The notes beneath the pieces were generated by a model that ran no database searches, was not told the origin of the DNA, and saw nothing but the letters and a program-made list of their open reading frames with translations. Shown piece after piece: positions 32,340 through 39,849 of a DNA stretch of 39,850 nucleotides. This DNA is from a virus (taxonomy: Duplodnaviria; Heunggongvirae; Uroviricota; Caudoviricetes; Crassvirales): positions 64,001 through 103,850 of IMG/VR virus record IMGVR_UViG_3300035498_000265; one strand, 5' to 3'. Numbering within the stretch: position 1 is the stretch's first letter; each line of letters begins with the position of its first letter. The position numbers and the translations under genes were made by a program.

Positions 32340-32537
32340 TTACTTATTATTAGACTAATCAGATTCACTAGGTCTCATATAATCAACTGAAACTAGGTAA
32401 GGCTCCCACTTACCATTTTTGAACCTATGTATAACCTTGATGTCACCAGTCTTTGTATCTTTATCTACCCATAGAACATCTGTTCTAGTAGGAGCTAAAT
32501 GAGATTCATATAAATTATTGAGGATTAACTTTTTCAT
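32340..32537 (-). CDS. Hypothetical protein, 65 aa (TAG=Gln)
   Basis: ORF-track fragment plus QSNNK to TAA 32340. Confidence 0.6.
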
Positions 32538-32904
32538 CTCCCGTCATATTTAATGTTGAATAATCTTTATTCCTTATCTGACAGCTTAAATCTGTACAGA
32601 TAGTAGTAGTAATTTTAAGTACTTGGTCTTTCAAGGTATCTATTTCTCTCTTCAGTTGTTTGTTTTCTTGCATGAGTTCTTCCATGGACTATCTTAAGTG
32701 TTCATTGTCCTCGAGAGCTTTATTCAACCTAGCTGTGGTATCATCACTAAGTTTCTCATAAAACTCTAGAGACTTCTACATGTTCTCTATAAGATTTCCA
32801 TCAACCTCACTATTATATTTCTTCCTAGCAAAAACCCAACTAGTCCATCCACTTATAATAGAAGTGATTACTCCTACTCCTCCCGTAATAAGTATCTCTG
32901 TCAT
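32515..32904 (-). CDS. N-terminal TM plus coiled-coil protein (holin or inner-membrane spanin candidate), 129 aa (TAG=Gln; absent from ORF track)
   Basis: MTEILITGGVGVITSIISGWTSWVFARKK then heptad-rich region and TICTDLSC. Confidence 0.65.
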
Positions 32905-32934
32905 AATATATTAGTGTTAAGAATTATCTGTTCT

Positions 32935-33057
32935 ACCAAGGATGGCTCTTGGTTAGAGTTGAGGAGGCTAGCATTAGCATTAACATTACTGTAACTCATA
33001 CTGAAGTTGCTAACTCCATTGTTACAATAGTTATAGTCACTACTAATGAGCTTATTT
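32935..33057 (-). other. Non-coding TR-like orphan sequence
   Basis: AAC/AAT-rich register (SSDYNYCNNGVSNFSMSYSNVNANASLL), same 10-nt 5' leader AAATAAGCTC as the real TR, 3' hairpin ACCAAG-agccatc-CTTGGT; no ATG-initiated ORF. Confidence 0.45.
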
Positions 33058-33070
33058 AAGTTTAACTCAG

Positions 33071-33469
33071 TTAGTTATTCTATTTGGTTTTTACCTTTTT
33101 ATATATCTCATAAGCTACTAGTACTAGTGATATACCACCTAGATACATCAATAGTTTCTAGTACCATCTAAGCTTATTAACTTCCTATGTTATAGTAGTT
33201 TTAACCTCAATAGGGACTTCTATAGAGTCAGTCTTTACAACGGTGTCTGTCCTATTTAGATATTTATAAATGTACTTATATTTATATTGATAAACAGTAT
33301 CACCTGATATATATCTATCAATACTATCATGTACAAATATACTATCTCTATACAGTTGATTAATATATTCAATTCTTACAGTCTCAACTGGAACCTCTTT
33401 CTCAATAGTCCTAGTTGATGTACATGATACACATATAAGTAGTAATATTGCTATCAATAGTTTTCTCAT
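33071..33469 (-). CDS. Lipoprotein with C-terminal TM helix (spanin candidate), 132 aa (TAG=Gln)
   Basis: Signal peptide II lipobox LLLICVS|C16; read-through of two TAGs adds LLMYLGGISLVLVAYEIY and a basic tail. Confidence 0.7.
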
Positions 33470-33475
33470 ATCTAC

Positions 33476-33961
33476 TTATTTTAGTAACTCTGAATACTCT
33501 TCCCAGTTGACAGCATCCTTAGCTTCCCAACCCTTAGACAGAGTCTCATTAATAAACACTAGAGCTTTAAAGTAAAAATCTTTAAGGTCATCTAGGCTTT
33601 CAAATTTATAATAAACAGGGTTATCAGTAGTACCTAGTTTAAATGTAGGCAATGTTTCACCATTGCTTTGAACAGCTATATCATAAGCTGCTTTATAATT
33701 AAACTGATTCTCCATAGATAACCATACTGGGATTTCTTTCCAAGTAAATCCTGTTAGTATCTCTTTGTCAATCTCTGCATTAAACCAGCTCAATATTACT
33801 TCTTTTATCTCAGCTAGACTTGGCTTATGTTCAAAGTTCTCTGATAAATAAGATGAATTACCTTCCTCATCAGTTTCCTTATTCCAAGTTATCATCCATA
33901 TATCTCTGATATAATTTGTACATTGTACTGGGTCTGCAACTCCATGTATCTTTATTGCCAT
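33476..33961 (-). CDS. Hypothetical protein (DUF4376-like), 161 aa
   Basis: Intact ORF with GFTWKEIPVWLSMENQFNYKAAYD motif; start overlaps the RT stop. Family name recalled, not searched. Confidence 0.6.
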   Translation of the reverse strand: MAIKIHGVADPVQCTNYIRDIWMITWNKETDEEGNSSYLSENFEHKPSLAEIKEVILSWFNAEIDKEILTGFTWKEIPVWLSMENQFNYKAAYDIAVQSNGETLPTFKLGTTDNPVYYKFESLDDLKDFYFKALVFINETLSKGWEAKDAVNWEEYSELLK

Positions 33962-34932
33962 TTTATAAATGTATTAAATAAATTATGCCCATTGCAGTGA
34001 AGACAATAACCTTTAATAGAAGCTATAATCTCCTACCTTCTTCTCTTGCTCTTAAGATAAGATAATTTAACTTGAGCTTTCTTCTTGATTCTTTTTCTAA
34101 CTCTAGAGTAAGCACCATTGAAAGTAACAAAGCCTAGGTAGTCTAGACCTACATTAAGTGGAGATACTCTGTAATTGCTCTTGATTGTCAACTTACTATC
34201 TTTTAGTAAGTCCTTTACTATATTATGAATCTACCATAGATACTCTTTAGTTGGGCCTAATATTACAACATCATCACAATATCTATAGTAGAATTTAATT
34301 CTATATTTACATTTAAGAGGCATATCTAATAACCACCCTAAGAATAAATTACCAAACACCTAAGAAGCTCTTAAACCTATACTGAGACCCTTATCTAACA
34401 TATCAACGAAGTTATCTAGTATAGGTAATAAAGTCTTATCTTTAATATATCTCCTAATACATACCTTCATTAACTCATGGTCAATGTTATGATAGTATTT
34501 ATTAATATCTATCTTGTAGAAGTATTTAGCTTCTTCTGGATGGTTTCTTATGTCTCTCTATATAATAGACTTCAAGTACATTGTGCCTCTGCCTTTAATA
34601 CTTGAAGCTGTTGTGTATATCATTCTCTTTACTAATAAATCATCAAGTATAGTCATTATAGCATTTACTGCTATTCTGTCCCTATAGTTGATGATTTGAA
34701 TTTCCCTCTCTTTAGCACCCTCTTTAATAATCCTAGTATCATAAGTGCCAAGTCTAAAACTACCAGTCTATATAGCCTCAATAGTTTCTTTAATTACTTG
34801 GTCTTTATTGCTCATTATAAAATGAGCTTGCCTAGTCTTCTTTCTCTTAGTACCCCTGAGTACTACTTTAATACTTCTTTCAATGTTTTCAGGAGTACAA
34901 ATCAATTTGATTAAGTCATTATACCTATGCAT
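33952..34932 (-). CDS. DGR reverse transcriptase, 326 aa (five in-frame TAG; absent from ORF track)
   Basis: KEREI...YRDRI, SIKGRG, YFYKIDINKYYHNIDH, GLSIGLRASQ, YYRYCDD (34270-34281), GLDYLGF; adjacent to TR. Confidence 0.92.
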
Positions 34933-34980: not shown

Positions 34981-35148
34981 TCTGGAAATTCTCTTACAGC
35001 TGCCTTGTTCACTATTAGCTACTAGAGGTTTCTGTAGATTTAACTTTTTTAGTTTTCCTATTATCAATGATAATAGCTTTTACTATGGCTCGTACCTCCT
35101 ATACCTATTAAAGTAATAGGTATAGTGTCTAATAGAGAAATTTCCAGA
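34981..35148 (-). ncRNA. Structured spacer between TR and RT (putative DGR RNA 3' domain)
   Basis: Hairpins at 35099-35125 (12 bp, 3-nt loop) and 35058-35076, enclosed by a 14-bp inverted repeat with one bulge (34981-34994 / 35134-35148). Confidence 0.55.
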
Positions 35149-35153
35149 GATTA

Positions 35154-35258
35154 TAACTGAGAGCCGTTGTTAGTGTTAGAATAACTAACTGAGTTATTAG
35201 CATTCAAGTAGAAAACTCTACTGTTCGCATTAGCGTTGTTGTTAGACTGCTTAAGAGC
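35154..35258 (-). repeat. DGR template repeat (TR)
   Basis: 105 bp, ungapped alignment to 35530-35634; 21 mismatches, all where TR has A on the coding strand; AAC/AAT-rich. Confidence 0.95.
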
Positions 35259-35394
35259 TTATTTTTTAAATAATTTCTTTTAAGTAGGTTTCAGCAACAG
35301 TAGCCATTTTCACTGAAAAACATAATGTTCTCCCGTTGTTGAGCTGAGGTACTATACCCAGTACTAAGCCAGATGCCTGACCTAATACTGGGTA

Positions 35395-35426
35395 CAAAGG
35401 TAAGAAAAATTTTTGAATTATGCAAA
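35395..35426 (-). promoter_or_regulatory. Consensus Bacteroidota promoter driving TR and RT
   Basis: Minus strand TTTG-N20-TACCTTTG, a full consensus match, between the target stop codon and TR. Confidence 0.75.
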
Positions 35427-35454: not shown

Positions 35455-38400
35455 TTAATTTTCTCTTATTTCTGTGAGATTCAGGTAGAAATCTATGTCT
35501 GATGTTTCTACTATATTACCCCTGAAAATCAACCGAGAGCCGTAGTTAGTGCTAGAATAACCAACCGAGTTATCAGCATTCAAGCAGAAAACCCCACCGG
35601 ACGCACCAGCGAAGTTGGAAGACCGCCTAAGAGCCCTTGTAGAAGCCCAAGTGCTTCTTAAGGTAGTATCAGAACTTTGATAGTCACAGTAGCCTTTAAC
35701 AGTACCACCACCAGAGGTACTACAACTACAAATATCACAATACTTACCATGGACAACAGCCTGGGGATAATTACCTGATGGGCCTACAAAGTAGACTCTT
35801 CTAGTAGATAAGTCTGGTTGAGTTATTCTCAGCTTACCACAGTTAGCAGAAGTCTCATTAGCCATAAATACTCTATCCATCCACTCTCCGGCATTACCCT
35901 GAATGTTCTCAAGACCTAGGAATACAGGAACTTCTATATTAGTGTAAGAGATTACACCACTTGAAGAAGTTACTGGGATAGAGGCATTAGCCCAAGTTTC
36001 AGCAGTAGCTATACTTGTTGGTATAGTAGTATCAGTCATACCATATTGTCTTGAAGCACCTAACTTTCTACCAGTAGTAGATGAGCCAGCACCTAAAACA
36101 TTTTGAGAGTTCCTTCTACCATACTTAGCAGTAAACAACATAGCTATTAGCTTATCAGCTTCATAGTCTACTAGTTGTAAACCTCTTGAGTAAGCAGCCT
36201 CACTAAGACTGTGCTAGAACCAGTCACCTTTAACATTAATATCAGCTACATCTTTACCTAGAGTTCCTACAGCAGCTGTCTTAGTTCCATTGAAAGAAGT
36301 ATAAACAGTTAATGAGTCATCTGAAGAAAGCTCAGAAGCAGCTATACAAACAGGCTCTGAATAAACCCAATCAGGCTCCATATCAGCAATCCAGTCCTTA
36401 GCATTCTCTGCAGTCATCTCTTCACCACTATTAAACTTACTTCCTTTATGTAGTACAATGTCACAAGGGTCAGCTGTAATAGAACCTGATACATATTTAG
36501 GAACACCTATGTAGAACCACTTAGCTCCTGAGGGAACAGTTACAATAGCAGGCATACCATTATAAGCATATACACTTGATGATACATAGAACTCACCTAC
36601 ATTTTGTACAGTACCTTCAGTATTAGAAATAATCAAGCCATTAGCACCAGTGAATACACAGCAAGTTTGACCTACTGATAGTGGGTATCTAACCTTCTTA
36701 TAACCTTCAACATTTACCCTAACAATATCATAGCTACTATTAGAAGTAGAAGGAATCCTATCATCAATATAGTTAGCAGCATTAGTAAAGCTGATAACCC
36801 TACTTTCTTTATATAAGCCTTCAGCATCAGCATCTAAATCTATGGGAGAGGCTTTTAAGTCAGCTATTGTTAGAACTCTAGTCTCACTAGAAGTACTAGG
36901 CCTAGTTTCTTGTGAACTAAAACAAGTATATTTCCTACTTAGAGATACACTAGTTGGGCTAAGATAGTTAATACCTTTATACCAGAAACCTGGGAATTTA
37001 ACATAAACTTCACCATAACCACTAGATTGTAGACCAGATAGATTGGCTTCTCTTCTAGTTAAGGAAGAGCCATATCCTGTAGAGAAGTATCTACTATCAG
37101 TGTCTTCTAGCTGAATAACGTACATTGTACCACTCTTATCCCTGGCATTTAAATAAGCTTTATCAGTAGCCTTAGGATTAGTTTCAATCTAAACAGATTT
37201 ACCTTTAGTAACTACTTTACCTAGAACTCTATGGACTTTACTTAAGATGTTAGCAATATGACCAGAAGGTACATATCTAGTTGAGTTTCTAGCACCAGTG
37301 TTATTATCAAAGTTAGTGATATTGCCTTTAACTACAGTACCAGTTACATCTGAGAATCCTGATTCATCTGTAATAGATTCATCTGACTCTATGATTGTGT
37401 ACTCAGGTTGCTTAATAGTTAGACTAGTAAACTTGCTACTATACTCTTTAACTATGTCATCATCAGTGTAAGTGGGAAGTTGTAAAGTACCTACTAATTG
37501 AGCACCAGTAGTAACCTAGTTGCCATCCTCATCAAGACCATAGTAGTCTGTGAATTGGTCTAGCCAAGTAATACTATCTTCTCTGTCAATGCCAGTTATT
37601 CTCAAATACTTAGTTGCTGCATTGCTTGATTTAAGCTTCTCAAATAAGCTCTCCCAATTAATATTAGGACAATCATTAACAAGAAGTTCACTTAATTGTG
37701 ACCAATCTTGAGCAGTTAAAGTATCTGAGTCTGAGTTATTATATTGAAGTAAATTTAGATTAGATAGATATAATCCCTTAGGAGTTCCTAAGATTAGGTT
37801 CTCAATAGGGGCACCTGCAGCTAATCTAACTGAACTAATACTAGTACCTGATACATTTAAGTATTTAAGTTTACTAGCTTTATTCAAACCTGAGAGCCCA
37901 GTGAATGTAGAATTAGATAAATCTACATAGTTAATAAGAGGACAGTCAGTAATATAAATATTACCACTACCATTACTTCCCAGATTAGAAGCTACTAACT
38001 TCTATAGGTTAGTTAAACCATTAACATTAATAGTATCCCCAGTAGTAGCTTTCCAAGAACCTTCAGAATCAATATATAATTCCTTAATTCTAGAAGCACC
38101 TAATACATTAGCAGGGTTATTAGCAGCATTACCTGTAATCTCCATACTTACTGTATAGTTGTTAGTGCTGTCAGCTCTCTAGTGGTCTCTTATGCCTGTG
38201 TTAGAAGTTTTCCAAGCAAAGTAGTAAGGAATACTAGATACTATAGTTACTTTATTAGTTAAAGCTGCATCACCTACATAGATGAAGGCATCTTGTTCAT
38301 AGTTACCAGCTTGGTACTTAGAGTCAAGCAAGTTAAATCTGTTCTCTAGAGTATATGTCCTATGAGCTTCCCTAGAACCCTGTGCAGTACTAATAAAGTT

Positions 38401-39849
38401 AGTGCTAATATCTGAAGGATACCCTGTCTCAGTTAAAGGGGTAATATATTTATATTTTTGTGAGTAGTTATACTGCCTTTGACTCCAGTTATTTACATAC
38501 TGACCATTAAAGATTTCTTTGAAGTAATCTGCACTGAATTTACCAGAGCTTCTCATTAACTTACATACACTAGATAAGTTAATAGCAGTCTTAGTATCTA
38601 CTACACTGTCAATAACTCTTTGAGTTGAGAAGTTAGCTCTAATTAAGTACCATAACCAGCTATCATGACCTTGTAGAGCATATTGACCTACACCATAGTC
38701 ATAAGTAGTTCTATCAGTTAGGTAATCATAAGCTAAGTAACAGTCATTCCTCTCACCTAATACTGTATCACCATCATAGTACTAGAACATCCAGTGAGTA
38801 CCATCCATAGTGTACATCATCATATTCTTAGCTCTTTGGTCAACAGCTAATAGATAGTCTGTCCACAGATACCAAGCGCAAACACTACTTAGGTTAAAGT
38901 AATCCTAGACATTGTTAATAAAGTATTCACAAGTCCAGTCAAGAGCTTCAAAGTCCTCAGACTTCATTGAGTTAAGGTCATAAGCTTTCTTACCATTAGC
39001 AGTAGCTACTTCCTTAGCACAAGTACCAATGAAGTTAAATACTCTCTTCAATTGTGTTGGTACATAAGCATATTGCTCAAACCCAGATGTAGTAGCTAAG
39101 CTATCAATACCATAATCAGCAGCTTGGTCAGTTACATCTGCAGGGGCTCTTACTTCTAGTTGATTTGAGAAAGCATCACTAGGATAAGTACTAGCTTCAT
39201 CAATGGCATCCCTTGTAGTAAATTTAATATGGAATAAGTCAAGGTCGGCGTTGTTATCAAGGAATTCAACACATATTGGTTGATAACTACCATCTTTATT
39301 ATAAGTACCATCTGCATCGTACTTATAGGCACCATCAAAACCAAAGACTTCACCTGAGCTAGATTTATCATTGTTAAAGTTATACTGACCCATGTATTGA
39401 AGATTAACATAGTTGCTATCTTCAAGAGTGTCAGTATAATCAGGGTTAACAACAGAGTCTGCAGCAAATACATCAATAGGAAATCCCTCAATAGCTACTC
39501 TAGTCTTAATATCATTAACACTAGTTTTATACTCTCTAGTCTGAGCTGGGTTCCTCAGTGACTCTACATTCTTAGTAAGTTCATTGAATACCATAGCACC
39601 AGCTGTGTTATGAGTCATTGAAGAGTCCACATAGTCAACCTTAAGACAGCAAATAGGAACCTCAACAGCATTCTAGCTCATAGCATACTTGAAGTTGTCT
39701 TTAACTTCACCACCAACTATGAATGAGCCTGCAGCAGGTTTTTCACTCTTAGTCTTTTTATTGAAGTTAATTCTATAGTTTTTCCTAGGTCTCTTAGTAG
39801 AAGTAGTACCCTGGATTCTTATAGCAGCTTCAGTGTGAGTAAAGTTAAA
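35455..39849 (-). CDS. Giant DGR target / putative receptor-binding protein (partial, >1460 aa): CotH-kinase-like, LRR-like and C-terminal C-type lectin domains (TAG=Gln)
   Basis: Five fragments in one frame separated only by TAG (8 in the window); open at the window edge. RIQGTTSTKRPRKNY, GQYNFNNDK, DQRAKNMM...YYDGDT; LxxLxL periodicity at about 37650-38100; GNAGEW and VR at the C-terminus. Confidence 0.8.
35530..35634 (-). repeat. DGR variable repeat (VR)
   Basis: Encodes ALRRSSNFAGASGGVFCLNADNSVGYSSTNYGSRL, a C-type-lectin-fold VR signature, 25 codons from the end of the gene. Confidence 0.95.

Follow-up and report, generated by a model that had tools for sequence, protein, structure and literature searches.

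A probable second DGR template repeat with a remote target in a crAss-like phage genome

The locus and its DGR genes

The window (the whole stretch of DNA that was analysed, 39,850 nucleotides) makes up the final 39.85 kb of a virus record that is complete, spans 103,850 bp and has direct terminal repeats. By its DNA and protein matches the phage belongs with the crAss-like phages, and comparison of open reading frames in the window indicates that TAG must be read as Gln for the long ones to be obtained. Along the minus strand lie, in order, a gene for a 1408-aa target protein (target-1), a first template repeat (TR1), a reverse transcriptase (RT) gene, a 161-aa gene, a 132-aa gene, the intergenic stretch 32905-33070 and a holin-like gene.

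The target-1 gene (35455-39681, minus strand) carries VR1 (35530..35634, minus strand) at its 3' end, and VR1 differs from TR1 (35154..35258, minus strand) at adenines only: all 70 non-adenine positions are identical, and 21 of 35 adenines are changed. Between the target-1 stop codon and TR1 (35340-35400 of the window, minus strand), a stem, TACCCAGTA / TACTGGGTA, was noted that encloses a large loop and is conserved, being kept in the relative L005; lying downstream of VR1, it may act as a terminator or as a structure related to homing.

The RT gene (33952..34932, minus strand; 326 aa with TAG read as Gln at five in-frame codons) matches RVT_1 (E 4.8e-14) and phrog_1423 (E 6e-78), and its product carries IGLRASQ, an instance of the (I/L)GxxxSQ motif of DGR enzymes, the Q of which is encoded by TAG. 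It is the single RT gene of the genome. No match to an Avd-type accessory gene (PF05635) was found in the genome at E<=1; Avd is missing from most of the DGRs that Zeta crAss-like phages carry (PMC12386605), and thus it is not a defining feature of phage DGRs in this group.

Overlapping the RT stop codon is the gene of an acidic 161-aa protein (33476-33961, minus strand) with a weak match to DUF4376 and a match to phrog_19239, which follows the RT in every relative, including G003, whose RT is only 30% identical, and which may serve in tail-fibre assembly or be an accessory protein linked to the DGR. Next comes the 132-aa gene (33071..33469, minus strand), which encodes a lipoprotein-type signal and a C-terminal membrane helix and has homologues at the same position in all relatives. 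The intergenic stretch that follows (32905-33070, minus strand) holds a candidate second DGR template repeat, TR2 (32961..33053, minus strand; 93 nt, 30 adenines), and beyond it lies a 129-aa gene (32515..32904, minus strand), the homologues of which in cultured crAss-like (crAss001-type) phages are annotated as "lysis regulatory protein/holin". TR2 is therefore placed inside a lysis cassette, with the lipoprotein-signal and membrane-helix gene on one side and a holin/Rz-like coiled-coil gene on the other; a Crass_capsid gene is close by in the relatives. Over 32700-33500, an interval that spans TR2 and its immediate upstream neighbour, no terminator-like site was detected, and neither an intrinsic terminator nor an excess of sigma-70-like promoters was found around TR2. 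The earlier note had correctly seen a template-repeat-like element here, on the minus strand, in an interval that also takes in a hairpin at 32935-32953.

The TR2/VR2 pair and its flanks

The genome-wide search for an adenine-mismatch partner proposed in the earlier note was carried out by sliding the element along both strands of the genome and counting matches at its adenines and at its other bases separately. One partner was found, at C1:23004-23094 (plus strand), with 63 of 63 non-adenine positions and 10 of 28 adenines matching; the best unrelated place matched at 33 of 63. Refinement of the ends gave a 93-nt pair, TR2 and VR2 (C1:23002-23094, equivalent to L001 6003-6095, plus strand), in which all 63 non-adenine positions are identical and 12 of 30 adenines are matched. 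The remaining 18 adenines are changed in VR2 (16 A>G, one A>C and one A>T). TR1, used as a control in the same scan, found only VR1. VR2 lies on the opposite strand from TR2, ~41 kb before the start of the window and ~74 kb from TR2 on the linear map, or ~30 kb across the terminal repeat, so the earlier finding that the window contains no matching VR was right: the partner lies outside it. The differences between TR2 and VR2 are confined to adenines, VR2 is in frame in a coding target, and the codons of the template are designed in a way that avoids stops. TR2 and VR2 thus show the defining signature of a DGR, and the element is a template repeat with a partner rather than an orphan.

In the frame of the target gene, TR2 has seven AAY and eight AGY codons, in which the adenines occupy the first two codon positions, and mutation of an adenine could create a stop at one codon only, the first (AAG). 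Twenty-two codons are recodable, and ~1e17 proteins are reachable from the template; VR2 differs from it non-synonymously at 17 codons and silently at one. The Asn/Ser register on which the earlier description as lectin-VR-like was based is therefore real; the lectin label itself, which may still apply, finds no support in the fold searches described below.

Direct alignment of TR2 with TR1 gives a score of 24, which is at the 98th percentile and is equalled or exceeded by 115 of 5186 genome windows; in view of such weak homology to TR1/VR1, the idea that TR2 is a recent copy of TR1 was rejected. Both TR2 and VR2 end in GCCTCCTC and then diverge, and no internal IMH/IMH* difference was seen. 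A scan of IMG/VR with an exact 35-mer of TR2 gave no match.

Several elements flank TR2. The 10-mer AAATAAGCTC, reported previously as a shared 5' leader, does straddle the 5' edge of TR2 (33048..33057, minus strand) and recurs at the 5' edge of TR1 (35255-35264); it has four copies in the 104-kb genome, counting both strands, falls in a different reading frame in each target, and is only loosely kept in relatives. The occurrence of AAATAAGCTC at both templates is real and weakly conserved. On the transcribed (minus) strand, TR2 is directly preceded by an exact 20-nt reverse complement of the TR1 core (33063..33082, plus strand), which overlaps the stop codon of the upstream gene and for which a rough estimate of chance occurrence is ~1e-4. 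This antisense leader is complementary to the phage's own TR1, with lineage-specific changes, in each of the relatives G002, L003, L005, L007 and L009, and is absent from G003, which has a different RT.

On the other side, starting 8 nt after TR2, is a hairpin of 6 bp with arms ACCAAG/CTTGGT and a 7-nt loop (32935..32953, minus strand), two of the six pairs of which show compensatory changes across five sequences; G003 has an 8-bp hairpin at the equivalent place. The motif GAACAGA, which follows the hairpin (32927..32933, minus strand) and is kept in relatives, has a loose counterpart, ACAGAAACC, in the spacer of TR1. Of the flank words common to both templates it alone survived comparison, and it is no more than a tentative lead. 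The heptamer GAGCCAT had also been proposed to link the two templates, and copies do lie within the loop of the hairpin (32942-32948) and within the spacer of TR1 (35085-35091). Its 13 copies in the genome are about the chance expectation, and the two flanks in relatives do not share it, so a functional link through this word was rejected.

The target-2 protein

VR2 occupies codons 136-166 of a 205-aa open reading frame, target-2 (L001 5598-6215, plus strand), which adjoins an ATPase gene and lies ~4.3 kb upstream of a helicase gene, in a replication-type block outside the virion block. Target-2 has no in-frame TAG and the RT gene has five; thus, the enzyme depends on TAG suppression, and its second target is in a part of the genome that is not recoded. 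The protein belongs to phrog_11581 (unknown function), and no Pfam family was assigned to it at E<=0.1. At least 659 homologues were found in metagenomes, many on contigs of ~100 kb, and in the alignment of the family a block, LVGG...GLLCCKS, is hypervariable exactly over VR2 with nearly invariant flanks. No variants of the exact target-2 protein are on record, as it is the sole sequence in its 90% cluster. GenBank phages gave no DNA match to the target-2 gene; by tblastn, the cultured crAss-like phages in GenBank match the N-terminal half of target-2 only.

An AlphaFold (AF2) model from 120 sequences (pLDDT 83) places VR2 on beta strands before two C-terminal helices, the region being a predicted beta-hairpin. 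Foldseek matched the model to no PDB entry at E<=0.001, and searching PDB sequences with a target-2 profile was likewise negative; in a VIA-align comparison with 48,161 representatives the best Z was 3.8 and none of the rows was a lectin. Matches by fold or family were to uncharacterised viral proteins, plus one weak row for 'SMI1/KNR4', which was discounted as an identification.

Layout and decay of the template in relatives

Homologues of the RT at 70-82% identity lie in neighbourhoods with the gene order seen here, in which the TR2 slot is again a gap between genes. Two complete, RT-bearing genomes, G002 and G003, were found via IMG/VR records that carry a homologue of target-2, and both have the same layout: TR1, RT, two genes, TR2, and a remote VR2 in the orthologous gene. 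In G002 (104,359 bp; RT 77% identical), the TR2 element is 0.9 kb downstream of the RT, and comparison with the VR of its own target-2 shows no non-adenine mismatches and ~19 changed adenines over ~104 nt; this VR2 is ~75 kb from TR2 on the other strand. G003 (104,352 bp) has an RT that is only 30% identical and the same flanking genes; its TR2 occupies the equivalent slot, its VR2 lies in the orthologue at a distance of 27.5 kb, and once more no non-adenine position is mismatched. Allowing for the points of linearisation, the spacing of TR2 and VR2 is alike in all three genomes, at ~28-30 kb by the short way round. The clade of G002 includes nine proteins from other assemblies that are 92-98% identical outside VR2, in which 7-12 of the 25 adenine-templated codons differ versus 0-1 of the 11 other codons. 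This variation, as read from assembled sequences, is evidence at the population level for use of a TR2 of this kind.

In other relatives the template is decaying or lost. Two contigs, L003 and L004, share 95% identity with G002 across 8.5 kb, and the spectrum of their substitutions tracks base composition. Their TR2 differs from that of G002 at 12 sites, 11 of which are adenines in G002, nine of them changed to G; all but one of the changes are in the 3' half, and the flanking sequences carry 1 difference in 92 sites and 2 in 95. The TR2s set side by side are L003 7882-7985 and L043 8792-8895. From this pattern it looks as if the L003/L004 template either received mutagenised cDNA or was converted from VR2, and the A-specific erosion of L003 TR2 hints that the template is poorly protected. 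In L005, the RT and TR1/VR1 are intact and TR2 is truncated and G-rich; in L008, TR2 is absent. Erosion, truncation or loss of TR2 in L003/L004, L005 and L008 implies that it is an unstable and dispensable add-on to the DGR.

The target-2 family itself extends beyond RT-bearing phages. The RT is absent from seven of ten other tested IMG/VR genomes with a target-2 homologue, PF00078 is absent from five further genomes with such homologues, and bajarodcaudo virus 1, the closest relative in GenBank, leaves no gap where TR2 would sit. Thus, the family is widespread without a DGR, and a template has been aimed at it in some lineages only. A scan of IMG/VR with RT peptide patterns gave no match. Five complete or near-complete crAss-like genomes (L011, which is G001; L021, which is G005; L026; L031 and L034) encode full-length target-2 homologues with VR-like blocks rich in Cys, Tyr, Gly and Ser and have no RT; these blocks may be the frozen products of a lost DGR.

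Interpretation and comparison with known systems

TR2 is very probably a functional, or very recently functional, second template of the phage's single DGR, with a remote target; this reading is drawn from the sequence of the pair and its conservation. As there is no candidate for a second RT in the genome, the same enzyme is inferred to copy TR2, and one RT appears to diversify two unrelated proteins, each from a template of its own that is unlike the other. TR2 would be transcribed together with the late minus-strand genes (the RT, the two small genes, TR2 and the holin-like gene), and the single RT would copy the TR2 RNA into cDNA, misreading adenines. That information from TR2 has replaced the 93-nt VR2 in the 205-aa gene is visible as an outcome in the sequence. 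TR1 would serve to diversify the 1408-aa tail-type target and TR2 the small protein. The antisense TR1 leader on the 5' side of TR2, and the hairpin and GAACAGA on its 3' side, are likely RNA elements that would bound or recruit reverse transcription on TR2. Among the readings offered in the earlier note, it is thus the first, in which the same RT serves a second template with a remote target, that is supported, by the perfect pair, the single RT and the recurrence of the arrangement in two complete genomes; a decoy RNA is not needed to explain the element.

The rival that survives best is that TR2 and VR2 are a frozen relic, made by past retrohoming, with TR2 no longer used in this phage. The decay or loss of TR2 in relatives that retain an intact RT and TR1/VR1, the absence on record of population variants of the exact target-2 protein, and the lack of an RT in seven of the ten other IMG/VR genomes tested are all consistent with a relic, and TR2 could be newly dead in this genome. 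Nevertheless a relic is unlikely here, as there are no mismatches among 63 non-adenine positions even though close relatives differ by ~5% genome-wide, the RT and TR1/VR1 are intact, the template retains 30 adenines and an essentially stop-free design, and in the G002 clade the orthologous pair can be shown to vary. The relic of an earlier DGR that had been suggested for this element is a better description of the eroded and truncated templates of L003/L004 and L005.

It is considerably less probable that the element is a pseudogene fragment or small open reading frame, that is, a duplicated C-terminal piece of the target gene and no RNA template. In the target's frame the TR2 region runs for 57 codons without a stop, up to a TGA that overlaps the ATG of the next gene, but an open frame is to be expected of any template of a coding VR, and there is no ATG, GTG or TTG start at the 5' end of this one, the first being an ATG 30 codons before the stop. 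The differences from VR2 are at adenines only, unlike the ordinary divergence of a duplicate, and the flanks are conserved as non-coding, RNA-like elements. A chance likeness of an AT-rich intergenic stretch to a template repeat, to which the common TR1 alignment score and the chance frequency of GAGCCAT might have pointed, is refuted by the match at every non-adenine base to a single remote site, against a maximum of 33 of 63 elsewhere, and by recurrence of the pairing in two other genomes.

To the reading of TR2 as a second template may be added a more speculative proposal, which is possible but rather doubtful: that target-2 is a new display scaffold for DGRs, neither a C-type lectin nor an Ig fold, which acts within the cell and is expressed early or in the middle of infection, and the hypervariable beta-hairpin of which binds a changing host factor such as a component of host defence. 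On this proposal one RT with two templates would diversify both adsorption and an intracellular interaction, and an RNA duplex formed by the antisense TR1 leader in front of TR2 would couple or bound the use of the two templates.

If TR2 acts as a second template, a conserved and dedicated repeat in abundant gut phages would aim hypermutation at a small protein outside the virion block, and the phrog_11581-type target family would gain a testable role as a ligand binder. It also becomes a question how two templates so unlike each other are recognised by one RT in the absence of Avd. The TR2s of relatives provide natural examples of template decay by adenine-specific change.

DGRs with several template repeats and DGRs with non-adjacent targets have both been published already; no paper was found in the literature on a dedicated second template for the target-2 family in crAss-like phages. 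Surveys confined to the neighbourhood of the RT overlook remote targets, as Roux et al. (2021, PMC8144416) state of their own large metagenome survey. The DGR of Bordetella phage BPP-1 (Mtd/TR/Avd/bRT) resembles this one in the adenine-specific transfer from TR to VR, in the GC-richer 3' end of the repeat and in the structured RNA that flanks the template. By contrast, BPP-1 has a single TR, its VR is adjacent and falls at the extreme C-terminus of a C-type lectin fold, Avd is required, and IMH/IMH* lie inside the repeat, whereas no internal IMH/IMH* difference was seen here.

Targets tens of kb from the RT in the same genome, possibly on the other strand, are known from phage DGRs (Wu et al. 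2018, PMC5758913), but those targets are further matches to the TR of the cassette, whereas here the remote target has a dedicated and dissimilar template. Two templates in one cassette are found in the DGR of Stenotrophomonas sp. SKA14, which has two TRs and six VRs (PMC6642488); that DGR, unlike the one described here, is on a bacterial chromosome, and its tandem DUF1566 (lectin-type) targets adjoin the cassette (PMC6642488). The Zeta crAss-like phages Lera and ct1yV3 have DGRs with three TR-VR pairs (PMC12386605), and are similar to the present phage in being crAss-like, in the amber recoding of some RT genes, and in having more than one TR-VR pair per RT (PMC12386605). Their extra pairs, however, have non-adenine substitutions, 3 and 10 in number, and were considered to be probably inactive (PMC12386605), whereas TR2 and VR2 agree perfectly at non-adenine positions. 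Avd is present in the Lera and ct1yV3 DGRs (PMC12386605), but none was found here. Furthermore, the targets described for Lera and ct1yV3 are tail-fibre proteins with C-type lectin domains (PMC12386605), whereas TR2 is paired with the gene of a small replication-block protein of unknown fold, tens of kb away.
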